Shown: one piece after another, positions 13,705-39,110 of the stretch
Layout of the letters: each line of letters begins with the position of its first letter
How positions within the stretch are numbered: position 1 is the stretch's first letter
Origin: Lachnospiraceae bacterium
GTDB lineage: Bacteria; Bacillota; Clostridia; Lachnospirales; Lachnospiraceae
Assembly: GCA_024695205.1 (NCBI GenBank)
Contig: JAILIQ010000054.1
Span: 1 to 44,224, forward strand
Direction of reading: 5' to 3'
DNA length: 44,224 nucleotides
Notes under the pieces: generated by a model
The model's input: only the letters and a program-made list of their open reading frames with translations
The model's database searches: none
What the model was told of the DNA's origin: nothing
Position numbers and translations under genes: made by a program

Positions 13705-14379
13705 ATGGCCGGGAAAATGACGGATTTTGACGGACCTCTGGTGCGCTCCACGCACAGAGTGTTCAATCTGATTTGGCTGAATATCCTGACAATATTGTGC
13801 TCTTTGCCGGTAGTGACCTTCGGGGCATCGTTTGCGGCACTGAATACGGTCGTTCTTAAGATGTCACGGGATGAAGAAGGCTATGTAACAAAAGAATTCT
13901 TCAGGGCCTTTAAGGTCAATCTTAAGGTCGGGATCAAGACATCTGTCGCGATACTGCTGTTTGTGGCGGTGGCATATGCGGATTTTTACGCGATCAGCCT
14001 GCTCGATGTATGGTTTGCCGACGTTGCGTGGTTCCTTCTTATCCTGTTTGTGATATTCTTTGTGATCACGGTCACATTTTTATTCCCGATAATGGCAAAG
14101 TTCGACGCGGGATTTGCCGATACGGTCAAGAACTCGTTTAAATTCGGTGTTTCGCACATTTTAAAAACGTTACTGATGTTTTTCCTGAACATCATACTGT
14201 GGGTTGTCAGCTATTATTTCCTGTTCCTCTCACCGCTTCTGTTCATCTGTGGTTTTTCCGCACCGGCTTATCTGGGAACGGGACTTTACAAAGAAGAATT
14301 TCGCAGGCTCGAGGAAAGCTTTTATTCTGCCGGATCCGGCAACGGCAGTGAAAAAGAAGGCCGGGAAGACAGAGGTTAA
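13705..14379 (+). CDS. DUF624 (YesL/YesV-like) integral membrane protein
   Basis: The N-terminal pattern FDGPLVR...NLIWLNILTILCSLPVVTFGASFAAL and the following FFRAFKVNLK are typical of DUF624. It has 5-6 TM helices. RBS GGGAGG lies 6 nt upstream. Confidence 0.75.
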   Translation: MAGKMTDFDGPLVRSTHRVFNLIWLNILTILCSLPVVTFGASFAALNTVVLKMSRDEEGYVTKEFFRAFKVNLKVGIKTSVAILLFVAVAYADFYAISLLDVWFADVAWFLLILFVIFFVITVTFLFPIMAKFDAGFADTVKNSFKFGVSHILKTLLMFFLNIILWVVSYYFLFLSPLLFICGFSAPAYLGTGLYKEEFRRLEESFYSAGSGNGSEKEGREDRG

Positions 14380-14383
14380 TATA

Positions 14384-15034
14384 ATGCTTGACAAAATATT
14401 CAATTTCGACAGTCCTCTTGTAAGGTTTGTCTTTCGCGTAAGGGATCTTTTTGTCCTCAATCTCCTGACGCTGGTGTGTATGATACCCGTATTTACCGCG
14501 GGTCCCGCCTTAAAGGCGCTGGCATTCACATGCCTGAAGATAGCAAGGGAAGAGGACGGAAGCATTGTAAGGACCTATTTTAAGAATTTCAAAATGAATT
14601 TTAAGCAGACCGTGCTGTTCGGACTGGTCTGCCTTGTGCTTGCGGCAGTAGGCTTCGGGGATATATTTGCGCTGTATTATTACAGGGAGCTTTTTACCGT
14701 ATTTATGATAATACCTGCCGTTATTGCCGTTATCGTCGTATTCGGGATACTTGTCTGGGCGATTCCGATGCAGGGCCGTTTCTTAAATCCGATCGGAACA
14801 ACCTTTAAAAACGCGTTCTGGGCGATGCTTGCCAAGCTGCCCAAAACCGCTCTGATGCTCATTTCATTTACTGTGATCCCTTCACTGTATTTCTTTGTTT
14901 CGGGCAATTTCTTCCCTTTGATCATTTTGTTCGGACTGTCGTTTCCGGCTTACCTGAACGCGATCATATATGAGCCGTTCTTTACCGAAACCGAAGAAGC
15001 GATACTTGACCGCGAGGAGAATTCCGGGGAGTGA
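14384..15034 (+). CDS. DUF624 (YesL/YesV-like) integral membrane protein, tandem paralogue
   Basis: Shares the pattern FDSPLVRFVFRV...LNLLTLVCMIPVFTAGPALKAL...YFKNFKMNFKQ with the gene upstream. ATG 14384 lies 4 nt after the upstream stop. The ORF-track start at 14204 overlaps the previous gene. Confidence 0.75.
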   Translation: MLDKIFNFDSPLVRFVFRVRDLFVLNLLTLVCMIPVFTAGPALKALAFTCLKIAREEDGSIVRTYFKNFKMNFKQTVLFGLVCLVLAAVGFGDIFALYYYRELFTVFMIIPAVIAVIVVFGILVWAIPMQGRFLNPIGTTFKNAFWAMLAKLPKTALMLISFTVIPSLYFFVSGNFFPLIILFGLSFPAYLNAIIYEPFFTETEEAILDREENSGE

Positions 15035-15072: not shown

Positions 15073-15103
15073 AAAAGGCTGAAAAGACACAGCCTTTTTC
15101 TTT
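15073..15103 (+). terminator. Rho-independent terminator after the DUF624 pair
   Basis: Stem AAAAGGCTG / CAGCCTTTT with an 8-nt loop, followed by TTTTTCTTT. Confidence 0.7.
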
Positions 15104-15251
15104 GTATATAATCAACAATAAATTGAGGCAGTGCCTTTGGAAACATATACATTTTTTCATGTGTTTTCCGGGCTGATTAAGAATAATGACCAACTGAGGC
15201 GTTGAGTATCCAATATACTTGCGACACTGTGTACAAAAAACGGAGGCATTT

Positions 15252-18188
15252 ATGATCAGGGGAAGAAAGATGAGAAACGGATTTACGATCGTAGCCATGG
15301 TGCTGGCGATCGCAATGGTGATCCTCACCCTTGAGCCCTACGCCACGATCATGGCGGCTACCGGCGCGAAGCTGAAGGAAAAGTATGTCGGCTTTGAAGG
15401 CGTACCGGTAGAGTGGAAATACGGCGCGGGAGAGAATGTTTTCAGCTACAGGGACACAAAAGAGTCTTATACGGGCATCCCTTCGGCATCTTCCGAGATC
15501 GCGGTCGCTCCCGGAAGCATCAGGGACGAGAACGGACAGGCTGCCGTAACGGCTTTTGAACAGAAGGAAGCTTACTTCTCGGCAGGCGACGGGGAATATT
15601 TCGAATTTGATGTCGAAGTTCCCGAAACGGCCGTATATGCGATCGAATTTGATTACTATCTGCCCAAGGGCAGTTCGGATTCGGCGAAGAGAGCGCTGTA
15701 TGTCGACGGCGAGTATCCTTTTACCGAAGCCGGAAGCATCGAGTTTGCACGTTTCTTCAGGGATGAGGGCGAACCGGTCCTCAACAGTATAGGAGACGAG
15801 ACAAGACCCAAGCAGATCACCATAGACGGATGGAGGACTACCGGTCTTAAAGATACTTCGGGTATAACCTCCGAGGATTTCACGGTCCTCTTAAATGCCG
15901 GAAAGCATACGATCAGGCTTGTAACAATGAAGACCGGCATGTATATCTCAGGCATCAGGCTGTGTGCACCGAAGAAGGTCTTAAGCTATGCAGAGGTCAA
16001 ATCCGGGTATGCTGCGAAGGGCTACACGGAAGCACAGACCGCAACGATCAATTTCCAGGCCGAGCTTACGGCCACAGAGAAGAATGATCCTACACTTCGC
16101 CGTGAAAATGACGGTGATCCGTTCGTTGTCCCCAAGTCCGACGTAAACCGCAAGCTCAACGTAATGGGCGGTTACCGCTGGAGAAAGGGCAATCAGAGCA
16201 TCACATGGGAATTTGATGTTGACGCGGACGGTCTTTACAAGATCGGCCTGTATGTAAAGCAGCAGTGGAATGACGGCCTTCCGTCCTACAGACAGATCGC
16301 AATTGACGGAGAGGTTCCTTTTGAGGAACTGATGGAGTACAAGTTCGAATATGACACAAAATGGAAACTCCGTACTCTTTCGGACAGCAGCAATCAGCCT
16401 TTTGAGTTTTATCTTACAAAGGGCCATCATTCGCTGACCATGACGGCCAAGATGGGCGAGCTCGGCGATGTGCTCACATCCATCCAGGAAGATATCGTAG
16501 TCCTTTCGGACATGCTCCTTGATATCAACCTGATTGCGGGCAGCTCACCCGACCCCAACTACGATTACAAGTTTTTCGAGAAGATACCGGATATGAAGGA
16601 ACAGATGGAATATCTTCTTGAAAGCATGGAATACAAATATCAATACGTGAACGGTATGTCGGAGAAGACTCCGGCCATCGCCAACAACTTCCTGACCATA
16701 AAGGCACAGATACAGGAAATGCTTAACGATCCGTTCAGTATTGCCAAGAAAACAGGCGATCTGCAGAATTCGCAGAAGAATCTTTCCGACTGGTATCTGT
16801 CACTGCAGAACGAACCGCTTGTCATCGACAGCTTCTATGTTGGTCCGATGAGTGATAAATGGGTCAGCAAGACCTCCAATTTCTTCCAGAGGCTCGGCGT
16901 TACCTTCAAGCAGTTCATTTCTTCGTTCAGCAAGGATTATGACAATGTCGGCGGTGTTCTTTCCGAAGACGTCGTCGTTACGGATACGATCAATGTCTGG
17001 ATAGCCCGCGGTACCGAATGGGCCGAGGTTATCAAGGAAATGGCGGATGAGGACTTTACTCCCAGGACCGGCATCGCGATCAACGTGAACGTTCTTCCGG
17101 CTTCCCAGCTGAATGCCGGCAATGTCAACGCAATCATGCTTTCGATCACTTCCGGCAAGGCTCCCGATGTGGCGCTCGGCGTGGATATCACCTCTCCGGT
17201 TGAATTTGCGATCAGGGATCAGGTATATGATCTTTCGCAGATGGAAGGCTTTGACGAGGTCAGGGACCGTTTCGTTCCCGCAACGCTTACTCCTTACGAG
17301 TACCGCGGCGGCACATATGCGATACCCGAGACGATGAACTTCAATGTAATGTATTACAGGAAGGATCTTCTGAGCAAATTCGGTATAGATCTTCCGAATA
17401 CCTGGGAGGATATGTACGATTATGTTCTCCCCGCATTGTATCAGGAAGGACTTCAGTTCTACTTTGCAAGGGATTTCACACAGTTCCTTTATCAGAACGG
17501 CGGTGCGTTCTATACGCCGGACGGTCTGAAGTCGGCACTCGACACGCCCGAAGCATATCTGGCATTTAAGGAATATACGGAACTGTTTACCAACTACGGT
17601 GTTCCGGAGACGGCGAATTTCTATCAGTACTTCAGATCGGGCATCATGCCTCTCGGAGTAGGTGATTTCAATATGTACATGCAGCTGTCTGTTGCGGCAC
17701 CGGAGATCGCCGGAAAATGGGGCATCGTTCCCCTGCCCGGACATGTCATGGCAAACGGCGAGATAGACAGGACTGCGGGCGGTATTACCGAGAAGGGCGA
17801 TATCATCATGAAGCAGTCCACGAAGCCGAAGCAGAGCTGGGCGTTCTTAAAATGGTGGTCAAGCGCGGATGTTCAGACAAGATTTGCCAAGGAAGTTGAG
17901 GCAATGATCGGCGCCGAGGCCCGCTGGAATACAGCCAACAAGGATGCGTTCCTGAGCCTGTCCTGGAATACGGCCGATATCGAGACGCTTCAGGAAGAGT
18001 GGCGCTGGGCCAAGGAAATACCTACAGTCCTGGGCGGATATATGACAACGAGACATCTTACCAATGCATGGACCAGCGTGGTCATCAGCGGTATGGATAT
18101 TAGAGAGGCCATGGAGCGTGCAGTTAAGGACATTAACCGTGAGCTTGTTATGAAACAGGAAGAGTACGGAGTGATTTCAAATGACTAA
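15252..18188 (+). CDS. Giant (978 aa) TM-anchored extracellular solute-binding protein: duplicated CBM-like beta-sandwich modules plus a helical linker plus an ABC family-1 SBP domain
   Basis: ATG 15252 lies after GGAGG. There is an N-terminal TM helix (FTIVAMVLAIAMVILTL) and no lipobox. Internal duplication: EYFEFDVEVPETAVYAIEFDYY..ALYVDGEYPF..GKHTIRLV versus ITWEFDVDADGLYKIGLYVKQQ..IAIDGEVPF..GHHSLTMT. The C-terminal ~430 aa look like a sugar SBP (INVWIARGTEW..., WGIVPLPG). Confidence 0.75.
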   Translation: MIRGRKMRNGFTIVAMVLAIAMVILTLEPYATIMAATGAKLKEKYVGFEGVPVEWKYGAGENVFSYRDTKESYTGIPSASSEIAVAPGSIRDENGQAAVTAFEQKEAYFSAGDGEYFEFDVEVPETAVYAIEFDYYLPKGSSDSAKRALYVDGEYPFTEAGSIEFARFFRDEGEPVLNSIGDETRPKQITIDGWRTTGLKDTSGITSEDFTVLLNAGKHTIRLVTMKTGMYISGIRLCAPKKVLSYAEVKSGYAAKGYTEAQTATINFQAELTATEKNDPTLRRENDGDPFVVPKSDVNRKLNVMGGYRWRKGNQSITWEFDVDADGLYKIGLYVKQQWNDGLPSYRQIAIDGEVPFEELMEYKFEYDTKWKLRTLSDSSNQPFEFYLTKGHHSLTMTAKMGELGDVLTSIQEDIVVLSDMLLDINLIAGSSPDPNYDYKFFEKIPDMKEQMEYLLESMEYKYQYVNGMSEKTPAIANNFLTIKAQIQEMLNDPFSIAKKTGDLQNSQKNLSDWYLSLQNEPLVIDSFYVGPMSDKWVSKTSNFFQRLGVTFKQFISSFSKDYDNVGGVLSEDVVVTDTINVWIARGTEWAEVIKEMADEDFTPRTGIAINVNVLPASQLNAGNVNAIMLSITSGKAPDVALGVDITSPVEFAIRDQVYDLSQMEGFDEVRDRFVPATLTPYEYRGGTYAIPETMNFNVMYYRKDLLSKFGIDLPNTWEDMYDYVLPALYQEGLQFYFARDFTQFLYQNGGAFYTPDGLKSALDTPEAYLAFKEYTELFTNYGVPETANFYQYFRSGIMPLGVGDFNMYMQLSVAAPEIAGKWGIVPLPGHVMANGEIDRTAGGITEKGDIIMKQSTKPKQSWAFLKWWSSADVQTRFAKEVEAMIGAEARWNTANKDAFLSLSWNTADIETLQEEWRWAKEIPTVLGGYMTTRHLTNAWTSVVISGMDIREAMERAVKDINRELVMKQEEYGVISND

Positions 18189-19128
18189 AACTAGTAAGGT
18201 TCCGCAAATGAACATGTCGCTCGACAATGACTGGAGATCGCGGGCGAAGAGGTTCATACGGAAGAACTGGATCGGATACGCGTTTCTTGCGCCCTTTGTA
18301 ATACTGTTTACGATATTCATCGTAGCTCCGGTTCTTACGGCAATAGGCTTAAGCTTTACCGATTACAACATGATGCAGACTCCTCATTTTGTCGGAGTCA
18401 ATAACTACAAGCTGTTGTTTCTGGACGATGAGGTTTTCATCACCGCGCTTTCAAACACGATAAAATTCGCGGTCATCACCGGTCCTATCGGTTATCTGCT
18501 TTCCTTCTTTGCAGCATGGGTTATCAACCAGCTTAAATTTAAGCGGTTTTTCGCACTTGCGTTTTATGCTCCTTCTATTACATCGGCTGTTGCGATGTCA
18601 ACGATCTGGATGGTAGCCTTCTCAGGCGACAGACTCGGATATATCAATAATTTCCTGTTAAATCACGGATTTATTGATGAACCGATCCTCTGGAACACAG
18701 ACCCGACTTACATCATGGGCGTTGTAATGTTCATCCAGCTGTGGATGAGTATGGGTACAGGCTTCCTTGTATTCCTTGCTGGTCTGCAGAACGTTGACAG
18801 GTCGATGTACGAAGCTGGTGCCATAGACGGTGTCAAAAACAAGTTTCAGGAACTGTTCTATATCACACTGCCCGCAATGAAGCCCCAGCTGCTGTTCGGT
18901 GCGATCAATTCGATCACCGGATCCTTCGCGGTATTTGAGATCGCTGTTCAGGTGGCGGGCATGCCAAGCCCGAATTACGCAGGACATACGATAGTGGCGC
19001 ACCTGTTCGATTACGCTTTCATACGTTTCCAGATGGGTTATGCGTCAGCGATAGCGGTTGTGCTGTTCCTTATCACTTTCCTGCTCGGCAAGGTGGTATT
19101 CAGATTCCTGTCATCGAAAGATGAATAA
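18181..19128 (+). CDS. Sugar ABC transporter permease (MalF/LplB-like)
   Basis: Six TM helices and an EAA-loop region (YEAGAIDGVKNKFQELFYITLP). The start overlaps the SBP stop by 8 nt, which suggests translational coupling. Confidence 0.88.
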   Translation: MTKTSKVPQMNMSLDNDWRSRAKRFIRKNWIGYAFLAPFVILFTIFIVAPVLTAIGLSFTDYNMMQTPHFVGVNNYKLLFLDDEVFITALSNTIKFAVITGPIGYLLSFFAAWVINQLKFKRFFALAFYAPSITSAVAMSTIWMVAFSGDRLGYINNFLLNHGFIDEPILWNTDPTYIMGVVMFIQLWMSMGTGFLVFLAGLQNVDRSMYEAGAIDGVKNKFQELFYITLPAMKPQLLFGAINSITGSFAVFEIAVQVAGMPSPNYAGHTIVAHLFDYAFIRFQMGYASAIAVVLFLITFLLGKVVFRFLSSKDE

Positions 19129-19191
19129 AAGAAACTCTCCGGACTGTTTAAACCGGATAAGAAAACATAAGTCACCGGGAGATAGTGAATT

Positions 19192-20073
19192 ATGATAAAG
19201 ATAAAATGGTTCAAAGGACAATGGCTGCATATTACATTCGGCAAAACACTGCTGTATGTGGTCATGATCGCACTTGTTGCATTTACGGTCCTTCCGCTCA
19301 TATACGTGGTAGTTACCGCGTTCAAGCCGCTTGACGAGCTGTTCGTTTACCCGCCGCAGTTCTTTGTAAGAAGACCTACGACCAAGAACTTCTCGGATCT
19401 GGTAATAACACTGGGCAGCTCTACGGTGCCGTTTACCAGATATGCCTTCAACAGTATCGTTGTTACGATCTGCATCGTATTTCTGACGGTCTGCGTGTCA
19501 TCGCTGGCAGCATATTCGCTGGTAAAGTTCAAGCCCAAGGGCGGCAAGTTCATATTTGACCTGATACTTATGGCGCTGATGTTCTCGGCGCATGTTACCA
19601 GGATCCCGAGCTACATGATCGTAAACAAGCTGAACCTGATCAATACCTACTGGGCGCTGATACTTCCGAATATCGCAGTTGCGTATAACTGTTTCCTTAT
19701 GAGGCAGTTCATACAGCAGTATCCGGATGAACTGATCGAAGCCGCCAGGATAGACGGAGCCGGTGAACTCAAGATCTTCATCAAGATGGTAATGCCTGCG
19801 CTCGCGCCGGCATGGTCGACTCTGATCGTATTCTCGTTTGTGACCAACTGGAACGATTATTTTTCACCTTTGATCTACATCACAAGCCAGGCAATGAAGA
19901 CTCTTCCTCTGGCACTGCAGACGATAAGCGGAGGCGCTGCGGGCATGAGTGTCGGACGTGCGGGAGCTGTTGCCGCATCGACACTGCTCATGACGGCACC
20001 TACGGTAGTAATATTTACGATCATGCAGGGCAAGGTTATGGAAACAATGGCATATTCTGGTATTAAAGGGTGA
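19192..20073 (+). CDS. Sugar ABC transporter permease (MalG/LplC-like)
   Basis: EAA loop IEAARIDGAGELKIFIKMVMP and six TM helices. Confidence 0.88.
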   Translation: MIKIKWFKGQWLHITFGKTLLYVVMIALVAFTVLPLIYVVVTAFKPLDELFVYPPQFFVRRPTTKNFSDLVITLGSSTVPFTRYAFNSIVVTICIVFLTVCVSSLAAYSLVKFKPKGGKFIFDLILMALMFSAHVTRIPSYMIVNKLNLINTYWALILPNIAVAYNCFLMRQFIQQYPDELIEAARIDGAGELKIFIKMVMPALAPAWSTLIVFSFVTNWNDYFSPLIYITSQAMKTLPLALQTISGGAAGMSVGRAGAVAASTLLMTAPTVVIFTIMQGKVMETMAYSGIKG

Positions 20074-20087
20074 TACGGGAGGTTAGT

Positions 20088-22247
20088 GTGAAAAGGATTA
20101 GTCGAATATCAGCTTTGATGCTGGCATTCCTCATGACGGTCATGTTGATATGTCCGGTCAGGGCGGATGCGGCGCAGTCAGAGAGCTACGTTACCGGCGA
20201 CGATAACTACCGGCAGCCGGTTCCCGAATGCTATGTTGTTACCGACATCATCAATAACCTTCGTGGTTTTGAAGACAAGAACGGCACATTCAGAAAGCCC
20301 CAGGATCTTTTCATCGATGACAATGATTTTATCTATGTGGTGGATACGGGCAATAAGCGTATCGTCAAGATGAATCCCGATTTTGAGACTGTTGCGACAT
20401 TTAAAGGGCCCGGCAAGGCATTTGCCAATCCCCAGGGAATCTTCGTAGATGACGACGGCGACATGTATGTTGCCGACACGGAAAACAACCGGATCGTTCA
20501 TATGGATCCGGAGGGCGCTCTGGTGGAGGAATTTGTCAATCCCGAGAGCGAGCTTGACACGGGAGCTGTATTTACTCCCACAAAGCTTGTTGTAACCCAG
20601 ACAGGATATATCTACACCGTAAAAGGTGAGAATATCATGGCGATCGACGGCAATAACGGTTTCCGCGGTTTCTACGGACAGACCAACATCGGATACGACC
20701 TTGCGGAAGCGCTGTTCAGAATGTTCGCGTCGGAAAGGCAGAAAGCCGTTCACACCAAAAAGCTCGCAGCCTCATATATCAATCTTACCTACGGTAAGGA
20801 CGGAATGATCTATGCTACCAGCATGGAGCGCGAGGAAGGCGAGATCAAGAAGCTGAATTCGATCGGTACGAATATTTACCGTAAATACAAGACAGTCGGC
20901 AATTCGCTTCGTAACCCGATCACCGATTTTATAGAAAATAAGCTGTTAAAGACCGTCGTTGCCGGACAGAGCTTCAAATTCGGCGAGTACTTTGACGATG
21001 ACGGCAACTATATAGAACCTGTATTTGTTGATGTCTGTGTTGACAATAACGGCATCGTTACCGTGGTGGAGCAGCTCAACGGCAAGGTTTACCAGTACGA
21101 CCAGGACGGCAGGATGCTTGTTGCGTTCGGCGGACTCGGAGAGAAGAACGGAACATTTACAAGACCGAGCGCGATCGATGTCGACAGCAAGGGCAGACTG
21201 TACGTGCTCGACCAGATCAATAATAATATCCAGGTATTTGAGCCGACGGAATTCATCCAGTATATCCATGATGCGACTTCGGCTTACAATAACGGTGATT
21301 ACGCCAGATCCTACGAGCTGTGGAATACGGTCCTTTCGATCGATGAAAACTATACGCTCGCACATGTAGGTATCGCAAGAGCCTATTACAAGCAGCAGCA
21401 GTACAAGGATGCGATGGAAGAGTCCAAGATCGTGGATGACCGTGATGTTTACACGATGGCCTTCGACGAGTACAAATATGAGGTCCTCAGAGCTCATTTC
21501 TTCCCGATAATCCTTACGGCTGTCATTATCATTGTTGCGGTGTTACTGTTCATAGGCTGGTTCCACAGGTTCGGAACGAAGAAATACTGGGAATTCATCG
21601 AACACCGCAAGCCTAAGATGAGCATCGGCGACGGGCTGACATATTGCTTCTATGCGATATTCCATCCGGTAGATGCCATGGAGGGTATCAAATACAACCG
21701 CGACAGACTGAATACGGCGGTTCCGATCATCATATTTGTAACGGCTTTTGTTGTACGGATCGCTTACCTTTATGTTGTTCATTTTCCGCTGGCTTCGATC
21801 GAGACCGAGGATATCAATCCCTGGTTTGAAATGGTGAAGCTGCTGATAGTTCCGCTGTCATGGATACCCGCATCGTTTATGGCAACAAGTATTTCGGGCG
21901 GCGAGAGTAAAGTAAAGGAAATAACCTTTGCAAGCGCGATCTCGCTGGTACCTTTTATCGTTATCAATGTACCGCTCATGTTCCTTTCGAACATCATGTC
22001 GAAGTCACAGCGTTCATGGTACGGCGTATTTTCGACACTTGCGTACATCGGACTGTTCCTGATACTTCTTATAGCCATGATGGTGCTGAACAATTATACC
22101 TTCGGTAAAACGATCGGAATGATGTTCGTAGCGGCATTCCTGATGCTTGTGCTGTGGCTTGTAATGCTGCTGTGCTATGTACTGTCGGGACGTGTTATCC
22201 AGTTTGTAATGTCAATAATCGAGGAGTTCAGGATTAACTTCCTGTGA
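20088..22247 (+). CDS. Signal peptide + NHL-repeat beta-propeller + TPR-like segment + C-terminal Yip1-like polytopic membrane domain; function unknown
   Basis: GTG 20088 lies 5 nt after GGGAGG. The signal peptide is VKRISRISALMLAFLMTVMLICPVRADA. NHL-type blades include FIYVVDTGNKRIVKMNPDFE, DMYVADTENNRIVHMDPEG and GRLYVLDQINNNIQVFEP. A TPR-like segment follows (YNNGDYARSYELWNTVLSIDENYTLAHVGIARAYYKQQQYKDA). Then come one TM helix and a 5-TM Yip1-like block. Confidence 0.7.
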   Translation: MKRISRISALMLAFLMTVMLICPVRADAAQSESYVTGDDNYRQPVPECYVVTDIINNLRGFEDKNGTFRKPQDLFIDDNDFIYVVDTGNKRIVKMNPDFETVATFKGPGKAFANPQGIFVDDDGDMYVADTENNRIVHMDPEGALVEEFVNPESELDTGAVFTPTKLVVTQTGYIYTVKGENIMAIDGNNGFRGFYGQTNIGYDLAEALFRMFASERQKAVHTKKLAASYINLTYGKDGMIYATSMEREEGEIKKLNSIGTNIYRKYKTVGNSLRNPITDFIENKLLKTVVAGQSFKFGEYFDDDGNYIEPVFVDVCVDNNGIVTVVEQLNGKVYQYDQDGRMLVAFGGLGEKNGTFTRPSAIDVDSKGRLYVLDQINNNIQVFEPTEFIQYIHDATSAYNNGDYARSYELWNTVLSIDENYTLAHVGIARAYYKQQQYKDAMEESKIVDDRDVYTMAFDEYKYEVLRAHFFPIILTAVIIIVAVLLFIGWFHRFGTKKYWEFIEHRKPKMSIGDGLTYCFYAIFHPVDAMEGIKYNRDRLNTAVPIIIFVTAFVVRIAYLYVVHFPLASIETEDINPWFEMVKLLIVPLSWIPASFMATSISGGESKVKEITFASAISLVPFIVINVPLMFLSNIMSKSQRSWYGVFSTLAYIGLFLILLIAMMVLNNYTFGKTIGMMFVAAFLMLVLWLVMLLCYVLSGRVIQFVMSIIEEFRINFL

Positions 22248-22264: not shown

Positions 22265-24547
22265 ATGGGTGAGAAGATTAAGAGATTCTTTCTTGACCGG
22301 ATCGGATCGATCGTATTCCTGGTCATTATCGCGATCCTGCTCGTTATAGGTACGGGAAGGGTAAAAACGGCCAGATCCAATGCGATAACATACAGCGATG
22401 ATTATGAAGCGCCCGAGAAGGAAGCTGATCTGACAGGCGCCGGTGAATATGTATCGATAGCCGAAAATGGCAAGCTGGAGCTCCTGTACAACGATGTCAA
22501 GGGAGCAATACAGGTCAGAAATCTCGAAGACGGTTATCTGTGGAAATCGATCGTTGACGAAGAGGTTTATCCGAAGCTTTCCAGGGCAAATGCCCAGTGG
22601 AAGCTGAACATGCAGTCGGCGATACATATCAAGTATAATGACCTGAAGAAGCGCGATTCGGGCGTAAAAGAGCTTTACGCGGCCAAGGATTGCGGATATC
22701 TTTCATCTGAGTATATCGAAAACGGAGTTGCGGTAACATACGGATTCCTGGCACCGGGTATCTACATTACCGTTGAATATACGATAGATGGGGATGAACT
22801 TGTAGTGAAGATCCCGTACGAAAAGATACAGGAATATTCCAAATTTGCCGTAGCAAGCATTTCGGTTCTTCCCTATATGGGTGCCTGCGGCAATGAGAAT
22901 GACGGATATCTTTTCTACCCGGACGGAAGCGGTGCCATAACAGCTTTTGACAGAGTGGCGGAGCGTGCCGCGAATGTCAAGATGTCCAATTACTTTGTAT
23001 ATCTTAACCGTTCGGTTTCTTTTAACAATATATTTTTCCTGGATAATTACGACCGCTACACAGCTGCGATGCCGGTATGCGGTATCAAGAACGGCGACAA
23101 TGCGTTATTTGCCTATATGGCAGAGGGAGCCGGCAATTCATGCGTAACGGTTTATCCTTCGGGTGTTGTTGTCGATCTGAACCGTATCAGCTTCGATATA
23201 TTTACGAGAAATGTTTATAACGTGGACATGTACAATATCTCGAGCGGCAATGACGCCCAGGCGACCGGCGGACAGGTTCAGCGTGTAGACAAGTTTGTGA
23301 TCCCCGAGGATAAGGTCATCAGGTACGCGTTCCTTTCGGGTGACAAGGCCAATTACAGCGGAATGGCCGAGGTTTACAGAGAATATCTTATAAGAAACAG
23401 CCTTCTGAATGACTCGCAGGCCGCCGACAACGGCAAGCTCGCACTCAAGCTTCTTATGGGAACGACCAAGCCGGGTATTGTATTTGACGAATATATCACG
23501 ATGACCACTTACGATCAGGTTATCGAGATACTCGAAAGCCTTAAATCGAAAGGCATTTCCAATGTCGAGCTTGTTCTGAACGCATGGCAGAAGGGCTGGG
23601 AGGACTATGAAAACTGGGGTCCCGATTCGCATCTGGGCGGAAAGAAAGGCTTGAAGAAGCTGGCAGAGTATGCAGACGCCAATGCCGACCTGAATGTCTA
23701 TCTTGCAACGGATATGGTGATCGCCAATTCCGAGACGAGCGGACTCAACGAGGAAGAGGATGTTGCCTATAATGGTCTGAACATTGAGATCTCGGCAGGT
23801 TCGACCGACGGCAAGAACTGGTATCTGAGAAATCCTTATGCTATAAAGCAGGTGAACGAGGCATTCCTTAAGAAGCTTGAAAAATATGATGCTGTCGGTG
23901 TTGCATATATGGATCTCGGCAAATATGCCTATGCGGATTTCAACGAATGGCATCCCTACATTAAATCGGAATCGGTCAAAGAGCTGATGGGGATCTTTGC
24001 GGATACAAAGAAAACCGGCAGGCTGATAGCTTCGGCAGGCCAGAACCAGTACGCATTTGCCAGCAGTGATTACATTTATGATATGAAAGAGGATCCGTTC
24101 GGTCTGTCGATCACGGATTACGCGGTTCCTTTTGCACAGATGGTTCTGTCGGGAAGGCTTTCGTACTCTTCGGAAAGCGCAGGCAATCTTGCCTACGACC
24201 TCCAGACCCAGAAGCTTAAATGGATCGAATTCGGTTCCGCTCCGAGCTTTTATCTGACTTACGAATCGGCGCTGAAGCTTCGTAATACAGGCAATGACCG
24301 GTTGTTCAGTTCCACATTCTCGGACTGGGAGCCCGAAGTGGTAAGTGTTTACGATGAGTACAGAAGGAATTTCGGGAAGATCTTCGGGGTAAGGATGAAG
24401 GAACACGAGGTTCTCGGACCTGATTACAGAAAGGTGACTTACGAGAACGGATATATCGTTTACATCAACTATTCCGATAAGGAAGCGGTTATCGAAGGTG
24501 TGACCGTTCCCGCAAAGAACTATATCGTAACGGAGGGAGGACGCTGA
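22265..24547 (+). CDS. Uncharacterised 760-aa N-terminally membrane-anchored extracytoplasmic protein (resembles the family I remember as DUF5696; unverified)
   Basis: AAGGAG RBS. There is one N-terminal TM helix (IGSIVFLVIIAILLVIG) and no motif I can assign to a known CAZy family. The central and C-terminal part has an alternating beta/alpha character compatible with a TIM-barrel-like fold (inference only). Confidence 0.6.
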   Translation: MGEKIKRFFLDRIGSIVFLVIIAILLVIGTGRVKTARSNAITYSDDYEAPEKEADLTGAGEYVSIAENGKLELLYNDVKGAIQVRNLEDGYLWKSIVDEEVYPKLSRANAQWKLNMQSAIHIKYNDLKKRDSGVKELYAAKDCGYLSSEYIENGVAVTYGFLAPGIYITVEYTIDGDELVVKIPYEKIQEYSKFAVASISVLPYMGACGNENDGYLFYPDGSGAITAFDRVAERAANVKMSNYFVYLNRSVSFNNIFFLDNYDRYTAAMPVCGIKNGDNALFAYMAEGAGNSCVTVYPSGVVVDLNRISFDIFTRNVYNVDMYNISSGNDAQATGGQVQRVDKFVIPEDKVIRYAFLSGDKANYSGMAEVYREYLIRNSLLNDSQAADNGKLALKLLMGTTKPGIVFDEYITMTTYDQVIEILESLKSKGISNVELVLNAWQKGWEDYENWGPDSHLGGKKGLKKLAEYADANADLNVYLATDMVIANSETSGLNEEEDVAYNGLNIEISAGSTDGKNWYLRNPYAIKQVNEAFLKKLEKYDAVGVAYMDLGKYAYADFNEWHPYIKSESVKELMGIFADTKKTGRLIASAGQNQYAFASSDYIYDMKEDPFGLSITDYAVPFAQMVLSGRLSYSSESAGNLAYDLQTQKLKWIEFGSAPSFYLTYESALKLRNTGNDRLFSSTFSDWEPEVVSVYDEYRRNFGKIFGVRMKEHEVLGPDYRKVTYENGYIVYINYSDKEAVIEGVTVPAKNYIVTEGGR

Positions 24548-24551
24548 GAAT

Positions 24552-25514
24552 ATGGAAGAAGTTAAAAAGAAAAAGAAGCGTTCGCTCTCTCTGAGGACAA
24601 AGAACTCACTTAAAGGTCTGGTATTTGTTACACCGTTTATTATCGGACTTCTGGCCTTCTTCCTCTATCCGCTGTTCTTCTCGCTGAGGATCAGCGTTGC
24701 GGAGAAGGTTGAGATCCTGGGCATGAAGCTGTCGGGATTTACCCTGTATTCATTCAAGAGAGCATTTGTTGAGGATTCGGAGTTCCTGCCTACATTTGCT
24801 TCAACGGTAAAATATACGCTTACAACATTTCCCCTGACCATAGTTCTTTCGCTGATCATCGCGATCATCCTGAATAAGAACATCAAGGGAAGAGGATTAT
24901 TCAGAGTCATATTCTTCATCCCTTTCCTTCTCGGAAGCGGTGAGATCATGACACAGATCCTCAATCAGGGCGTTGACAGAGCGGTACTCAACATCATGGA
25001 CGGCAGGATCATTCCGTACAATGTTCTGAGTTATTTCGGAGCCAATATAGTTGATATCGTCCAGAATGTATTCGGAACCCTTGTTACGGTCCTGTGGCGA
25101 AGCGGTGTACAGATACTGCTGTTCCTTGCGGGCCTTCAGAGCATCTCACCGTCTCTTTACGAAGCGGCGAGGATCGACGGAGCGACCGAATGGGAGCTGT
25201 TCTGGAAGGTTACGATACCGATGATATCACCTATGATGCTGCTGAATCTCGTTTATACCATCGTTGATTCGTTCACGAGTCTTGACAATGAGCTGCTCGG
25301 TTATATCAAGACTTACGGATTTGCGAATGCGGAATTCTCCTACGCATCGGCACTCGGCTGGATATATTTTGCGTTTATCGGAGTTCTGGTCGCGATCATT
25401 TTCGGTATCATGAAGAATTATATGCATACAAGCGAAGTTGAGGAGGTAAGGAAGCGTGAGCGCAAACACAGAGTCATTACAATCGAAAAAGCACGCAGAC
25501 GGACTTTCGAGTAA
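24552..25514 (+). CDS. Sugar ABC transporter permease (MalF/LplB-like), second system
   Basis: EAA loop YEAARIDGATEWELFWKVTIPMISP and six TM helices. It starts 4 nt after the upstream stop. Confidence 0.88.
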   Translation: MEEVKKKKKRSLSLRTKNSLKGLVFVTPFIIGLLAFFLYPLFFSLRISVAEKVEILGMKLSGFTLYSFKRAFVEDSEFLPTFASTVKYTLTTFPLTIVLSLIIAIILNKNIKGRGLFRVIFFIPFLLGSGEIMTQILNQGVDRAVLNIMDGRIIPYNVLSYFGANIVDIVQNVFGTLVTVLWRSGVQILLFLAGLQSISPSLYEAARIDGATEWELFWKVTIPMISPMMLLNLVYTIVDSFTSLDNELLGYIKTYGFANAEFSYASALGWIYFAFIGVLVAIIFGIMKNYMHTSEVEEVRKRERKHRVITIEKARRRTFE

Positions 25515-26469
25515 GATGAAGCTTCGTATGCAGCTGTTTGCGAGAAAATATTTCACAAGCTCCGGAGTCAAACTGCTCCTTGTAAGGATCGTCATGTATC
25601 TGCTTGTATTCGGGCTTGCGTTCGTATTTATCTATCCGTTCCTGTATATGATCGTCAATTCGCTTATGTCGAATGCGGATCTGAACAGCAGCTCGGTACG
25701 CTGGCTGCCCACGGAGCTGAAATTCGAGAATTACGCGATCGCGCTTCAGCTGATGAACGGCAAGATATTTGCGAAGAATTCACTGATCGTTACGGTAGTT
25801 GCATGTATCGGCCATATCTTTTCCTGTTCGTTCATCGGATACGGTTTTGCAAGGTTTAATTTTCCGGGAAAGAACTTTTTGTTCATGTTTGTCATACTGG
25901 CGTTCATAGTTCCCACACAGACCCTGATAATCCCCTCGTACCTGACCTATTCGAACCTGAAATGGCTGAATACTTTCCTGCCTCTTACGGTTCCGGCATT
26001 CTTTGGATTCGGACTCAGAGGCGCGCTGTATATCTTCCTGTTCAGACAGTTCTTCCTGACGGTTCCTAAGAGCCTTGAGGAAGCGGCAAGGATCGACGGC
26101 TGCGGATTTATGAAAACCTATTGGAAGATAGTTTTCCCGCTTGCCCGCGCTACCATAGTTGTTGCACTTGTACTTGCGGTAGTATGGCACTGGAATGATG
26201 CCTATGAGCCGGGTATCTATATCAGCAGCCCGACCAAGCAGTTCCTGCCGCCCAGGATCAGGCTGATCATCGAAGCGACCAACGCTCTTCCCGATCAACA
26301 GCAGGAGATGCTGAGACAGTTGGGACTTGAAGACGGCGAAGACACGCTGAACAATGCGGTCGTTATGGCCGGTGCGGCAATAATCAGTGCTCCGGTACTG
26401 CTGTTCTTCGCATTTGCCCAGAGACAGTTCATGCAGGGTATTGAACGTTCCGGTATCACCGGAGAATGA
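25456..26469 (+). CDS. Sugar ABC transporter permease (MalG/LplC-like), second system
   Basis: EAA loop LEEAARIDGCGFMKTYWKIVFP. GTG 25456 follows AGGAGG but overlaps the upstream gene by 59 nt. An alternative start, ATG 25516 (MKLRMQLF), lies 1 nt after the upstream stop, so the 5' end is uncertain. Confidence 0.82.
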   Translation: MSANTESLQSKKHADGLSSKMKLRMQLFARKYFTSSGVKLLLVRIVMYLLVFGLAFVFIYPFLYMIVNSLMSNADLNSSSVRWLPTELKFENYAIALQLMNGKIFAKNSLIVTVVACIGHIFSCSFIGYGFARFNFPGKNFLFMFVILAFIVPTQTLIIPSYLTYSNLKWLNTFLPLTVPAFFGFGLRGALYIFLFRQFFLTVPKSLEEAARIDGCGFMKTYWKIVFPLARATIVVALVLAVVWHWNDAYEPGIYISSPTKQFLPPRIRLIIEATNALPDQQQEMLRQLGLEDGEDTLNNAVVMAGAAIISAPVLLFFAFAQRQFMQGIERSGITGE

Positions 26470-26773
26470 TGAATCTTTAAGTAAAATGTATTTTTCGGAT
26501 ATATCCCATTACGGAGGACCGGGTATCTGAAGAAGGTTCTTTAAGGAAACGGTATTCAGTCTTTCAAACCGGATGTATTCGTTAAATAAATGATGCAGAT
26601 GTCTGTGTCTAATATCACAGATCGCCGGAAACCGGTTGGAATACCGGAAAGGCGCAACTTTCCGGCAACCGTACGGCAGACCGTGTGGCACAATAAAAGT
26701 GCCGTGCAGTCTTCAAGGGGGAGATCTGTAAGACATGGCCATCAAAACCAAACTATTTTACAGGAGGCGTAAA

Positions 26774-28477
26774 ATGAAGAAATTGAGAAAGACCGTAGCT
26801 GTACTGCTCGCGCTTGCCATGATCTTAAGCCTTGCAGCATGTACAAAGGACACAGGATCAGAGAATCCTACCAATGCTCCTACACAGGAAGCTGCACAGC
26901 CTACCAAGGCAGAGCAAAAGACCGACGACGGCAATAAGACCGACGACGGCAACAAGACACCCGAAACTACTCCCGAGCCTACAGCGGAAGTACTTCCTCC
27001 TCTTGCTATCAGCGTTTCACTTCCCAGTGACAATGAGCATGTGGCAGACGGAACAAATGATGTTGAGATGCAGTATTATCAGAAGCTGATCGATGGTATC
27101 CAGGCTTATACCAATACCAATATCACATGGGAGTGGCTTGCACAGGCTACATACTATGATGATGAGCACCTCGGACTTAAGATCGCTACAGGCGATGTAG
27201 CCGATGTTCTCGTAGTCGGTAAGAACGCTGCTTTCCTTGATGCTGCAGAGAACGGACTCTTCTGGGATCTTGCTCCCTACATTGATGAGTTTGACAACCT
27301 TGCAACCATTCCTGAGGCAACAAGACAGAATGCTTCTTACAACGGTAAGATGTACGGACTTCCCCGTTCAAGAACACTGGCTCGTAACGGTCTCGGATAC
27401 CGTCTTGACTGGCTGAACAACCTTGGCCTTGCAGAGCCCACAACTTGGGAAGATTTCGAAGCTATGCTTTACGCATTCACTTACAACGATCCTGACGGAA
27501 ACGGTGTTGACGATACCGTTGGTCTTGGTCTTGATAACTGGGGCGGCGTATTCAACATCATGATGACCTGGTTTGGCGTTCCCAATGAGTGGGGTCTTGA
27601 CGCAAGCGGCAACCTTATCTACAAGGCAGAGACCGAAGAGTACAAGAATGCTCTTAAGGCTTTCCGTGAGCTCTATTCAGAAGGCGTTATCAACAACGGC
27701 GCAAACGGTATCCCTGATTTCCGTGAGGTTGATCCCGGTAAGGCAAGAGACCAGCTGTTAAGACAGAGTCTTGCAGGCTGCGGCGTACAGGTTCTTGACG
27801 ATCAGAGAAAGGTTGAGACCTACTTCGAGGATAACGGACTTTCAACAGCAGATGAGCCTATTTACACACTTCAGGGTTATGTTGATACAGGCAAGGGACC
27901 TCTTTGCTATCCTACAACCGGTATGAACAACATGATCGCTATTTCCACAAAGAACATCAAGACAGAAGATCAGCTTCGTCGTGTTCTTGGATTCCTTAAT
28001 GACATTAACGACGGCGAGATGCTCAACCTCATTGAGTATGGCTGGGAAGGCGAGACCTACAGGATCAACGATGAAGGCTATGTAGAGCTGTTCACCGCTG
28101 AAGAGCTTGAAGCAAACGGCGTTGGTTCGACCAAGTACAACTTTGGTTTCAACCAGGTTATCCCTTACTTCACAGCACCTGCAAATGCACGTCCTGTTGA
28201 TCGTAACCTTTACACATCAGCTATCACTATTCTTGAGCAGGAACTCTATGCTGAGGATATCCAGTACTGCGTACCTAACTACGGTGCAAGCTTTACTTCG
28301 GATACCTATGTAACTCAGGGTGCAGACCTTGACAAGATCATTGCTGATGCACAGCTTGCATTCATCGTTGGCGAGATCGACGAGAGCGGTCTTAACGAAG
28401 CTATCAAGACCTGGAAGCAGGGTGGCGGAGATCAGGTTACCAAGGAAATGAATGACCTTTACAAGGCAAGCAAATAA
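26774..28477 (+). CDS. Extracellular solute-binding lipoprotein, large LplA/YtcQ-like sugar SBP
   Basis: ATG 26774 lies after AGGAGG. Lipoprotein signal MKKLRKTVAVLLALAMILSLAAC (lipobox LAAC), followed by a low-complexity linker with KTDDGN KTDDGN. SBP-like body of 567 aa. Confidence 0.85.
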   Translation: MKKLRKTVAVLLALAMILSLAACTKDTGSENPTNAPTQEAAQPTKAEQKTDDGNKTDDGNKTPETTPEPTAEVLPPLAISVSLPSDNEHVADGTNDVEMQYYQKLIDGIQAYTNTNITWEWLAQATYYDDEHLGLKIATGDVADVLVVGKNAAFLDAAENGLFWDLAPYIDEFDNLATIPEATRQNASYNGKMYGLPRSRTLARNGLGYRLDWLNNLGLAEPTTWEDFEAMLYAFTYNDPDGNGVDDTVGLGLDNWGGVFNIMMTWFGVPNEWGLDASGNLIYKAETEEYKNALKAFRELYSEGVINNGANGIPDFREVDPGKARDQLLRQSLAGCGVQVLDDQRKVETYFEDNGLSTADEPIYTLQGYVDTGKGPLCYPTTGMNNMIAISTKNIKTEDQLRRVLGFLNDINDGEMLNLIEYGWEGETYRINDEGYVELFTAEELEANGVGSTKYNFGFNQVIPYFTAPANARPVDRNLYTSAITILEQELYAEDIQYCVPNYGASFTSDTYVTQGADLDKIIADAQLAFIVGEIDESGLNEAIKTWKQGGGDQVTKEMNDLYKASK

Positions 28478-35249: not shown

Positions 35250-35768
35250 ATGGATGATGAATTAAGAGATGAGATCCTTGAAGCGGTTGAAGATGCACTC
35301 GATTCGGTAAAAGAGGATCTGGCAGAGGAACTGACCGGTCTGATCGAGGATAAGCTTGATGAAGCGCTTCTTGACGATATTTCCGAGGAGATCGCGGACA
35401 GGCTTGAAGAGAGGATCGACGAGGCGATCAATGATTCCATAAGCGAATTCTTTGCAGAAGGAATAGAAGAGTATCTTGAGGCTCACCAGTTCATCTTAAA
35501 TGACGGTACTGTAGTCCAGTCACGCCACAGGACCAGAGTTCTCGCTCCCGATAAGAAAAAGCTCCTCAACTGCTACGGCGGACTGAGAGTTCAAAGTACG
35601 GAAAAAAACGGCGGTAACGAGACTGCCCGTGGATGGGGACTGGCCGTACAGACCAGGATCTCATGCTGGGAAGTAATAAGCGTCTATGAGCGTGAAGAAG
35701 ATGCGATCGCTGACCTGATGAAGGTGGAAAATGCGATAACCGAGGGCGCCGAGCTCGTTGAGCTGTGA
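35250..35768 (+). CDS. Hypothetical protein: extremely acidic helical N-terminal half and a small globular C-terminal half
   Basis: Good RBS (AAAGGAGAG). The first ~80 aa are D/E/L/I-rich (DEILEAVEDALDSVKEDLAEELTGLIEDKLDEALLDDISEEIADRLEERIDEAINDS). No recognisable domain. Confidence 0.55.
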   Translation: MDDELRDEILEAVEDALDSVKEDLAEELTGLIEDKLDEALLDDISEEIADRLEERIDEAINDSISEFFAEGIEEYLEAHQFILNDGTVVQSRHRTRVLAPDKKKLLNCYGGLRVQSTEKNGGNETARGWGLAVQTRISCWEVISVYEREEDAIADLMKVENAITEGAELVEL

Positions 35769-35780
35769 AAGGGGTAACTG

Positions 35781-38700: not shown

Positions 38701-39110
38701 TAAGCTTCAGGATAAAGCTTAACAAACCGGTTGATATTGAAAGACTCTATGTACTTCCGATCCAGAATGACAGGGACTTTCCCGGTGTGATCAGAAAATA
38801 CGGGATTAAGGTCAACGGCAGAGAGTTTGGCGGTGAATGGAAGAACGGATTTGAGACACAGTATTCGGATCTTATTTGCGAACATGCCGATGAGCTTGTA
38901 TTTACTGTTTATTCAACATATTCCATGGGAACTGCAACGAGATGGTATGAGGAAAAAACAGGCTATTACAGGAGGACCGCAACGGAACCGCTGCTGATCA
39001 CGGCAGCTTCCCTGGGAATCGAATATAAAGGCGCGGACGGATTCCGCAGAAACGATGACCTTTTCTGGAAGGGCGAGGTCGTAAGACTTAATGTGACAAT
39101 AGAACAGTAA
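35781..39110 (+). CDS. Glycoside hydrolase family 2-like enzyme (1109 aa, cytoplasmic) with low-complexity insertions and a possible C-terminal discoidin/CBM32-like domain
   Basis: The N-terminal sugar-binding-domain pattern is LSGEWKV...DLPGT. TIM-barrel elements are NFIRFHSFCPPEAAFAAADEAGVFLQAE, an acid/base-like LSPTNEPGG and a nucleophile-like LAHEMGQW. No signal peptide. Substrate not assignable. Confidence 0.7.
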   Translation: MISLSGEWKVYLNGPAGDGAGTGKMIDLPGTVGGAGLGEKISRDTEWFSGLYNPFWYEREEYKSGTGEDFKVPFLSQPKTYYAGKAVYERDFVTDGAGAGDNDGAGADCDNGPETDRNEGLKEGSNNGPEECGDSFNIAAMESNIKREWYLFIELTKWRVSVEIDGKFIGEDESLCAPFLFGPVMLAAGTHHIKVTVDNSMLYPYRPDAHSVSDCLEAGWNGMAGRIGLIGAAEKEKLISDRKIYAAKHPVSVEVVGRNIVVNKKAEYMRGTHFGGGFHETLYPPYERPYWDRLMNTVKEWGFNFIRFHSFCPPEAAFAAADEAGVFLQAECGMWNVFDPEDCGMFDVLMKETRKILEWFGHHPSFIMLSPTNEPGGQWYEPLKKWVVLAKQINKELGYEGRRLFTAQSGWFYDVPPAEITGTDYIYFHRSAYGPIHGGMIRNRWGWRGRDYTPSLEGCRLPVLAHEMGQWCAYPDFGVIDKFTGGIRGGNYEIFRDNAAENGVLKYNKEFVYASGRAQLRLLKEDFEANFRTREITGFEYLDLHDYPGQGTAQVGILDAFLDNKGYATPVEFKTFNSPLEILSRIDGYVYKNTDKLKASFEICNFSGADICDARLELNICAYDDEDEREQLIDAAYAAGCGGASRSGDRKQVFSGIFEIADTLAGQNTFAGSFEADLSLICKSTGALLTASLIDKDNNCRSVNYWDLTVFAEEKCRTDPGDAGKSEDKVYYVRTPEEAKKLLDLGKTVVFSPYLSDMDFECPPSGIRNIFWNAQMGPSWSRPLGIIVDTDNPIFKHFPTGKAGGWEWEDILEHARGLNFNPDHANIVRVVDDWNRNFPLSLIFEGRVGCGKLLFCSADLEGGYAERPAAATLKNALICYAGSEEFDPEQEIKWDDVCRHLKPLYRGMDIIDSVELTGGNDKTGCPNRAGNEKDKTGSGDETDPKNRDLSKELEKLTDINPNIPFRYEPEEFPVSFRIKLNKPVDIERLYVLPIQNDRDFPGVIRKYGIKVNGREFGGEWKNGFETQYSDLICEHADELVFTVYSTYSMGTATRWYEEKTGYYRRTATEPLLITAASLGIEYKGADGFRRNDDLFWKGEVVRLNVTIEQ

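Follow-up and report, generated by a model that had tools for sequence, protein, structure and literature searches.

What would a polytopic membrane protein of the Yip1 family, joined to an extracellular beta-propeller, do in a sugar-importer operon? The question is raised by a gene at positions 20,088-22,247 of the forward strand of contig JAILIQ010000054.1 (assembly GCA_024695205.1) from a Lachnospiraceae bacterium; the whole stretch of 44,224 nucleotides that was analyzed is referred to below as the window. A preliminary description had presented the product as an unusual fusion of a secreted NHL propeller, a TPR-like segment and a Yip1-like domain with five transmembrane (TM) helices. We found that a signal peptide and a six-bladed NHL propeller are followed by approximately two TPR motifs and a single TM anchor, and that a short cytoplasmic linker then leads into a Yip1-family domain with five TM helices. 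Judging from the genomes compared, the NHL-TPR/Yip1 pair, whether fused or split, sits in one invariant cassette of gut and soil Firmicutes. With moderate confidence, we read the protein as a non-catalytic scaffold or assembly subunit that would tie extracellular glycan processing to uptake. Residue numbers throughout follow the 719-residue database gene call P0001.

Fused and split forms of the NHL-TPR/Yip1 pair

Relatives of the Yip1 module were collected by an exhaustive HMMER search in place of a word-indexed homologue search, which, with the C-terminal 260 residues as query, yielded just 13 fragments, all from close relatives, and missed the standalone Yip1 proteins. The exhaustive search with a profile of the module recovered 1043 representative clusters at E<=1e-3, 391 at E<=1e-10 and 35 at E<=1e-30. 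Among the best 149 clusters, 77 are standalone proteins of 180-250 amino acids and approximately 54 are fused (at least 600 amino acids, with the match at the C-terminus). Thus, the fusion is not unusual, nor is it in itself a discovery, since the family is already present in databases under generic names. As the preliminary description had allowed, it belongs to a common family, albeit not to an already characterized one.

At every informative locus with a standalone Yip1 gene, a protein of 473-498 amino acids is encoded directly upstream, its stop codon overlapping the Yip1 start. In this upstream protein, a signal peptide precedes an NHL propeller and a TPR region, and a TM anchor lies at the C-terminus. 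The NHL and Yip1 proteins measure 484 and 207 amino acids in locus L041 (overlap ATGA), 473 and 215 in L043 (overlap TTGA), 474 and 227 in L047 (overlap of 4 nucleotides) and 498 and 206 in Butyrivibrio fibrisolvens D1 (overlap of 22 nucleotides). Because the split relatives encode overlapping NHL-TPR-TM and Yip1 genes, the 719-residue gene is, on sequence comparison, a Rosetta-stone fusion of two translationally coupled genes, predicted to form an obligate pair. Fused and split forms do not separate in a neighbor-joining tree of 139 Yip1 domains but alternate in 62 runs along the leaf order, which suggests that fusion or fission occurred repeatedly, a change that is easy to imagine where stop and start codons overlap.

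An invariant cassette with two importers

The cassette comprises, in order, a giant solute-binding protein (SBP), permeases A1 and A2, the NHL/Yip1 protein, a DUF5696 protein, and permeases B1 and B2. We compared the neighbors of the gene in the window, by tblastn, with 38 species-representative genome loci holding the NHL-Yip1 protein, from Acetatifactor, Lachnotalea, Lachnoclostridium, other Lachnospiraceae and a few Clostridiales and Oscillospiraceae. Of the 38 loci, 36 kept this order over the reach of their contigs; the two exceptions are a contig-end fragment (L035) and a propeller-only match in a Dehalococcoidia genome (L038). Within this set, permease B2 is usually followed by a second SBP and often by a lyase of polysaccharide lyase family 11 (PL11). 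The same cassette order was found in L039, L040 and L045, at 25-27% identity, and in the split-form loci, including L047. A metagenome scan based on the standalone Yip1 protein P0155 yielded two loci, both distant fused forms.

Two cultured organisms, one from Bacilli and one from Clostridia, carry the cassette in RefSeq genomes. In Paenibacillus cellulosilyticus KACC 14175, a UgpC-type ATPase, a 986-residue SBP and two permeases precede a 719-residue 'YIP1 family protein', which is followed by DUF5696 and two permeases. In B. fibrisolvens D1, genes for a histidine kinase and response regulator (HK/RR) and for a protein of glycoside hydrolase (GH) family 43 precede a 977-residue SBP, two permeases, the separate NHL and YIP1 proteins, DUF5696, two permeases and two SBPs. 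In the window, 14 nucleotides separate the gene from the stop codon of the upstream permease, 17 lie on its 3' side and 4 separate DUF5696 from permease B1; in other genomes, 4-nucleotide overlaps occur between cassette genes. Gene order kept across such divergence is usually associated with physically interacting products. Since the order is kept from Bacilli to Clostridia at approximately 25% identity, the cassette products may well interact physically.

The Pfam matches of the neighbors and the conserved gene order bear out the sugar-importer operon setting proposed earlier. The unit of interest is the whole cassette, including DUF5696 and the SBP of approximately 1000 residues, beyond the neighboring permeases. 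In the related loci, the giant SBP measures 968-1001 amino acids, approximately twice the normal SBP size, and heads the cassette in all of them. Its CUT1-type fold is confined to residues ~590-967 (best PDB match Lin1841, E 4e-21), preceded by a conserved N-terminal extension of ~590 residues that has a borderline GH115_C-like beta-sandwich match, and the protein carries an N-terminal hydrophobic anchor or signal.

Domain architecture and topology

The domain order and topology given in the preliminary description were confirmed by profile searches, an AlphaFold2 model and hydropathy. The model of the 719-residue protein, based on a 48-sequence alignment, reached a predicted local distance difference test score (pLDDT) of 78.3 and a predicted template-modelling score (pTM) of 0.67. 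The signal peptide looks cleavable, as described (MKRISRISALMLAFLMTVMLICPVRA/DA), is of signal peptidase I type and without a lipobox, and an N-terminal hydrophobic segment was seen in all deep homologues. Lipid attachment through the signal-peptide cysteine (LIC) was rejected, because the residue at -1 is Ile and the cysteine is not conserved in the family consensus.

The propeller matched Pfam NHL (PF01436) in 3 stretches with 62 bits against a cutoff of 20 (E 3.2e-17), and in the model it forms six groups of four strands at residues ~49-386, with an insert at residues ~196-228, helical at ~205-223, and a low-confidence insert at residues 267-299. About six blades with repeated NHL motifs had been described; six blades are present in the model, whereas the canonical motif (Y/I)V(V/A)D..N.RI occurs in three of them only (FIYVVDTGNKRIV, DMYVADTENNRIV and RLYVLDQINNNIQ), the remaining blades being divergent. 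In a Foldseek search of the PDB with the whole model, the result of which was dominated by the propeller, the best matches were six-bladed NHL domains: TRIM71, Lin41, Thin, Brat, TRIM2/3 and the designed Pizza6 (E 1e-13 to 1e-16; template-modelling scores 0.74-0.80, target-normalized; 14-21% identity for TRIM71/Lin41, Brat and TRIM2/3). These TRIM71/Lin41, Brat and TRIM2/3 domains are all binding modules rather than enzymes, although they are cytoplasmic eukaryotic domains that bind RNA or protein. Some fused relatives of 805-912 residues (P0274, P0149 and L045 9001-11739) have inserts of up to ~200 residues between blades 1 and 2. A scytonemin-type protein was considered and rejected, the NCBIfam ScyF score of 79 bits lying far below the threshold of 350.

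Deeply conserved propeller residues (D73, D86, T131, G173, F192, G260, D315, D338, G341 and D375) are structural NHL positions, and in the alignment with homologues at 25-39% identity no His/Glu/Asn metal-site set was conserved among the invariant propeller residues. For both reasons, the conservation pattern favors binding over catalysis.

Evidence for TPR motifs in the following segment was borderline in single-sequence Pfam searches: 21 bits in the full protein and, for the excised piece, 27.2 against a cutoff of 27 for TPR_2 and 25.3 against 25 for TPR_19. A family profile of the same segment from 13 homologues (23-47% identity) matched a multi-repeat consensus TPR chain in the PDB with E 2e-25 and CTPR3 with E 4e-14, at profile positions 16-68, as well as the natural TPR proteins CTR9, CDC27 and HOP. 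Taken together with four helices at residues 388-448 in the model, these matches indicate approximately two TPR motifs, in line with the TPR-like segment noted before. The TPR region is followed by a conserved extracellular juxtamembrane helix, in which Y455 and A458 are invariant at 25-39% identity, and by the TM anchor (residues 471-492), which corresponds to the anchor at the C-terminus of the NHL-TPR protein in split relatives. The loop at residues 490-545 contains 9 Lys/Arg residues, and five more hydrophobic helices lie downstream of it in both the hydropathy profile and the model. By the positive-inside rule, the predicted topology places the ectodomain outside, the linker in the cytoplasm and the C-terminus outside.

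Assignment of the C-terminal domain, previously called Yip1-like, to the Yip1 family is supported transitively, through a family profile that finds proteins passing Pfam Yip1, and not by a direct Pfam match. The standalone proteins P0155, P0162, P0169 and P0187 (207-215 residues) matched the module profile with E 4e-35 to 2.5e-27 and scored 34-57 bits on Pfam Yip1, against a gathering score of 28.6, which the close homologue P0119 approaches from below with 26.0. The fused relatives P0141, P0149, P0274 and P0278 pass the Pfam cutoffs for NHL and Yip1 alike, and 'YIP1 family protein' is also the RefSeq name of the fused Paenibacillus homologue. The standalone proteins align over their full length with residues 510-719, and they share with the window protein the motifs HP, HFPLA, E..K...P...W, TSI..GE, P(F/Y)I, (M/L)N.YT and E(F/I)R. 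Hydropathy, the distribution of Lys/Arg and the model helices agree on five TM helices and a cytoplasmic N-terminus of the Yip1 domain. A PDB sequence search with the module found no solved relative.

The layout raises the possibility that the protein is a ligand sensor or gate, in which the propeller would bind extracellular glycan, much as the NHL sensor domain of PknD may bind a ligand, and signal through the TM helix and Yip1 domain to open, close or activate the permeases. Mycobacterial PknD, the parent of the Pizza designs, likewise places an extracellular six-bladed NHL propeller on a single TM helix; the propeller shares 30% identity with its NHL sensor domain across ~140 residues (tblastn), and PknD-derived Pizza proteins are among the fold matches. 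Conservation of the juxtamembrane helix and of the HP motif on the cytoplasmic side would also fit. However, the cytoplasmic part of PknD is a Ser/Thr kinase, in place of which the window protein has a linker of ~23 residues and the Yip1 loops, and the TPR segment here lies between propeller and membrane. A PknD-type sensor was rejected, since the kinase output domain is absent from the window protein, and no other recognizable output domain is present. Separate HK/RR or AraC genes seem to take care of regulation at these loci, and we know of no precedent for a separate polytopic protein that gates type I ABC (ATP-binding cassette) importers. Signaling and scaffolding fit the sequence data alike; on the points above, we consider a sensor or gate unlikely.

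DUF5696 as a candidate glycoside hydrolase

In all loci, DUF5696 directly follows the NHL/Yip1 protein, and the stop and start codons often overlap. The DUF5696 protein of the window matched its Pfam model (PF18952) with 458 bits against a cutoff of 25.6, and an N-terminal TM anchor or signal was found in 7 of 7 deep homologues. A sequence search of the PDB with DUF5696 found no relative, and a literature search returned no paper mentioning DUF5696 or PF18952. An AlphaFold2 model (pLDDT 88, pTM 0.88) shows a beta-sandwich and a (beta/alpha)8 barrel. The best Foldseek matches of this model were GH129 enzymes (5opq/8rzk), namely the 3,6-anhydro-D-galactosidase ZgGH129 (E 3e-33, template-modelling score 0.72) and the alpha-N-acetylgalactosaminidase NagBb (1e-27), followed by GH101, GH36, GH31 and GH97. 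GH129 and GH101 enzymes have a three-domain fold like that of the model, at only 12-14% identity. Homologues at 25-32% identity keep D220, D558, D618, E655, H714, R315, R372, W441 and W688 invariant, and the barrel contains invariant carboxylates. We consider it most likely that DUF5696 is a membrane-anchored extracellular glycoside hydrolase and a candidate for a new family, with the activity predicted from the modeled fold. In L045, the paired DUF5696 protein is enlarged to 910 residues.

The invariable adjacency of DUF5696, often with overlapping stop and start codons, could also indicate that NHL-TPR/Yip1 is a biogenesis or retention factor, which would act in the insertion, folding or retention of DUF5696 or of the giant SBP, outside the working transporter. 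TPR modules are commonly chaperone or assembly adaptors, which would suit such a function. Eukaryotic Yip1 proteins are described as acting in membrane trafficking (PMC6682643). This explanation leaves the equally strict linkage to both permease pairs without an account, and we regard it as quite unlikely.

A proposed scaffold between glycan processing and uptake

The transporter accessory, assembly or scaffolding role put forward in the preliminary description remains the best-supported reading. The Yip1 bundle may dock onto, or organize, the ABC permease dimers within the membrane, while the propeller and TPR region, modules that both serve in binding proteins or ligands, would sit directly above the membrane and hold the anchored DUF5696 protein and/or the giant SBP, or bind glycan. 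Oligosaccharides freed outside the cell could then be handed straight to the importers, coupling hydrolysis to uptake. Such a role would resemble that of YknW, a Yip1-family protein of Bacillus and the only bacterial one known to us to have been studied, which is reported to influence how the ABC transporter YknXYZ assembles and in which oligomeric state YknX occurs (PMC4887032, PMC4338810). Bacterial Yip1 proteins had been called essentially uncharacterized; in view of YknW, this is not wholly so. Like the domain studied here, YknW, the fourth component of YknWXYZ in B. subtilis and B. amyloliquefaciens, is a prokaryotic polytopic Yip1 protein encoded in an ABC-transporter operon and has no catalytic motif. 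However, it has no NHL/TPR ectodomain partner, and its partners are a MacB-type exporter and a membrane-fusion protein instead of CUT1-type importers, a giant SBP and a GH-like enzyme; the likeness is drawn at the family level.

Eukaryotic Yip1/YIPF proteins belong, by the transitive assignment, to the same Pfam family (PF04893) and share five TM helices, a cytoplasmic N-terminus and a C-terminus on the far side of the membrane. YIPF proteins, the N-terminal region of which is long and cytosolic, work together with Rab GTPases in ER-Golgi trafficking, whereas the bacterial module has a short linker only and is tied to an extracellular propeller. To our knowledge, bacteria have no Rab system.

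A bolder version of the scaffold reading would make the cassette a Gram-positive 'utilisome', a single membrane supercomplex in which NHL-TPR/Yip1 bridges the two distinct ABC importers, the multidomain SBP of ~1000 residues and DUF5696 as a new family of GH129-like surface glycosidases. In Bacteroidota SusCD utilisomes and Gram-positive polysaccharide utilization loci, a surface enzyme, binding proteins and a transporter are likewise encoded together and proposed to work as one unit. Yet the components of those systems are entirely different, and the physical complex considered here is hypothesized from genes; we hold this version as possible but doubtful.

Several observations weigh against the scaffold reading and the assignments on which it builds. 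Even at E<=10, Pfam Yip1 (PF04893) gave no match to the protein's own C-terminal 255 residues, and the tree of Yip1 domains is a rough neighbor-joining tree of a 200-residue domain. As a precedent, YknW is a relative at the family level only, and the transporter that it serves is a MacB-type exporter instead of a CUT1 importer. The flanks of the cassette vary by genome, with GH43 in Butyrivibrio and flavin oxidoreductases in Paenibacillus, so that the substrate of the cassette probably varies too. Finally, the propeller matched Pfam SGL (SMP-30/gluconolactonase) with 32.9 bits against a cutoff of 26.3, albeit only at profile positions 143-232 of 246, that is, over two blades, and this partial match accounts for the name 'SMP-30/gluconolactonase/LRE family protein' that homologues bear in databases.

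The last of these observations would fit an enzymatic propeller of the SMP-30/gluconolactonase/Vgb type, which would act as a lactonase, lyase or esterase on glycan or its products at the cell surface, with Yip1 merely as an anchor. Weak Vgb_lyase and Phytase-like Pfam matches on the propeller, the presence of streptogramin B lyase (2qc5) among the fold matches and the pectin locus surrounding the cassette point the same way, and several polysaccharide lyase families are beta-propellers. Against this, families that share a propeller clan would be expected to give a two-blade SGL match of this kind, non-enzymatic NHL domains rank first among the fold matches, and, besides the missing His/Glu/Asn cluster, an NCBIfam scan of the protein found no enzyme model near its cutoff. 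Moreover, a one-helix anchor is already present, and a conserved 5-TM Yip1 domain would be superfluous for anchoring alone. An enzymatic propeller thus appears improbable, and the non-catalytic scaffold or assembly subunit remains the reading that we favor.

Gene model and transcription

The open reading frame (ORF) that spans positions 20070..22247 (+) contains the gene, for which GTG at 20088, six bases 3' of GGGAGG, is the probable start. The resulting gene, 20088-22247, is identical to the database gene call, and the preliminary coordinates were exact. The gene is real: it has more than 120 full-length homologues at 61-81% identity, nearly all of 715-730 amino acids and mostly from metagenome-assembled genomes of Lachnospiraceae and from gut or rumen samples, and it is transcribed, parts of it being matched with 0-1 mismatches by contigs of bovine-gut metatranscriptomes (e.g., 20368-20556, 21250-21400 and 21552-21750). 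The features of the gene and of the cassette are collected in Table 1.

Table 1. Positions in the window of the features of the NHL-TPR-Yip1 gene and of its cassette
Feature	Positions	Strand	Basis
Giant SBP, 989-residue ORF	15219..18188	+	Cassette member; conserved in all related loci
Permease pair A, 315 + 293 residues, BPD_transp_1	18181..20073	+	Synteny
Shine-Dalgarno GGGAGG and GTG start codon of the NHL-TPR-Yip1 gene	20076..20090	+	GTG at 20088; agrees with database gene call
Signal peptide, Sec/signal peptidase I type, residues 1-26/28, VRA/DA cut	20088..20171	+	Hydropathy
Extracellular six-bladed NHL beta-propeller, residues ~34-386	20187..21245	+	Pfam NHL, AlphaFold2 strands, Foldseek, tblastn to PknD
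TPR region, approximately two motifs, residues 388-451	21249..21440	+	Pfam at cutoff, family profile against PDB, model hairpins
Conserved extracellular juxtamembrane helix, motif D..(G)Y(S/T).AF.EY(R/K)	21441..21497	+	Deep alignment, profile consensus
Single TM anchor, residues 471-492	21498..21563	+	Hydropathy peak 3.19; matches C-termini of split proteins
K/R-rich cytoplasmic linker, residues 493-515	21564..21632	+	Corresponds to gene boundary in split relatives
Yip1-family 5-TM domain, residues ~516-719, plus stop codon	21633..22247	+	Profile search, Pfam on relatives, end-to-end alignment, hydropathy
DUF5696 protein, 760 residues, N-terminal TM anchor	22265..24547	+	Pfam, AlphaFold2, Foldseek, invariant residues
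Permease pair B, 320 + 337 residues, BPD_transp_1	24552..26469	+	Synteny
Second SBP, 580 residues, lipoprotein, lipobox LAAC	26735..28477	+	In most, not all, related cassettes

In rumen metatranscriptomes, no other transcript of the region comes close to that of the second SBP in abundance: in three bovine-gut metatranscriptomes it was covered 50-175x, against ~0-10x for the other cassette genes. This uneven coverage argues that the signal is RNA and not contaminating DNA, and the excess could reflect either a strong internal promoter, transcript stabilization or reads from related strains. RNA contigs of run X26 seem to join position 19668 to 22046; because the 10-mer CTGATACTTC is present on both sides (19659-19668 and 22058-22067), a deletion variant was rejected, and the joint is most likely an assembly or alignment artifact. 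A scan for promoters and terminators gave counts no higher than in shuffled sequences. A terminator-like hairpin at 15073-15098 and a promoter-like site matching 10/12 positions at 15084-15112, both 5' of the giant SBP, may mark where the operon begins.

The surrounding pectin locus

Around the cassette, the window is a rhamnogalacturonan-I (RG-I)/pectin locus, containing two DUF624/YesL-like genes, a GDSL esterase, DUF1961, a PL11 lyase, a PcRGLX-like lyase, an AraC regulator and an FGGY kinase. Since the cassette is embedded in this locus, its cargo in the window is probably a pectin-derived oligosaccharide. The PL11 rhamnogalacturonan lyase (28641-30959) begins directly at the catalytic domain, lacks a signal peptide and is thus presumably cytoplasmic, which implies the uptake of fairly large RG-I oligosaccharides. 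The two DUF624 (YesL-like) membrane-protein genes lie in tandem at 13705-15034, directly 5' of the cassette, and DUF624 precedes many related cassettes.

The gene for the PcRGLX-like lyase, of the rhamnogalacturonan exo-lyase type, contains a single in-frame TAG (40983-40985, within the conserved stretch WYGMFN*GDFMHTYD), which splits it into ORFs at 39138-40985 (615 residues) and 40995-42041 (348 residues) and could be a nonsense mutation, the mark of a pseudogene or an assembly error. Between this gene and a CmpB-like membrane protein, the region 35250-39110 holds an extremely acidic 172-residue ORF followed by a 1109-residue ORF without a Pfam match or signal peptide. At 31101-33026, a 641-residue protein pairs a GGDEF diguanylate cyclase domain with one for sugar sensing that is LacI-type and periplasmic-binding-protein-like; it may link sugar sensing to c-di-GMP.

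Implications for glycan uptake and the Yip1 family

In the literature search, no paper was found that links Yip1 or NHL proteins to sugar ABC importers. What is new here is the recognition of NHL-TPR and Yip1 as an obligate pair within a strictly conserved cassette with two importers, a giant SBP and DUF5696, together with the GH129-like fold predicted for DUF5696. How gut and rumen Firmicutes take up plant glycans is far less well understood than are the Sus-like systems of Bacteroidota. The strictly conserved module of 7-8 genes, three products of which (NHL-TPR, Yip1 and DUF5696) are uncharacterized, occurs in Lachnospiraceae of the rumen and gut and in soil Paenibacillus. The pattern of fused and split forms predicts that NHL-TPR and Yip1 act as one unit, and the gene order predicts a complex of this unit with both importers and the putative glycosidase. 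Should the supercomplex described above exist, prokaryotic Yip1 proteins would be general organizers of ABC-transporter assemblies. Even in eukaryotes, what Yip1-family membrane proteins do biochemically is poorly understood, and the module provides a tractable bacterial system in which their role can be approached.

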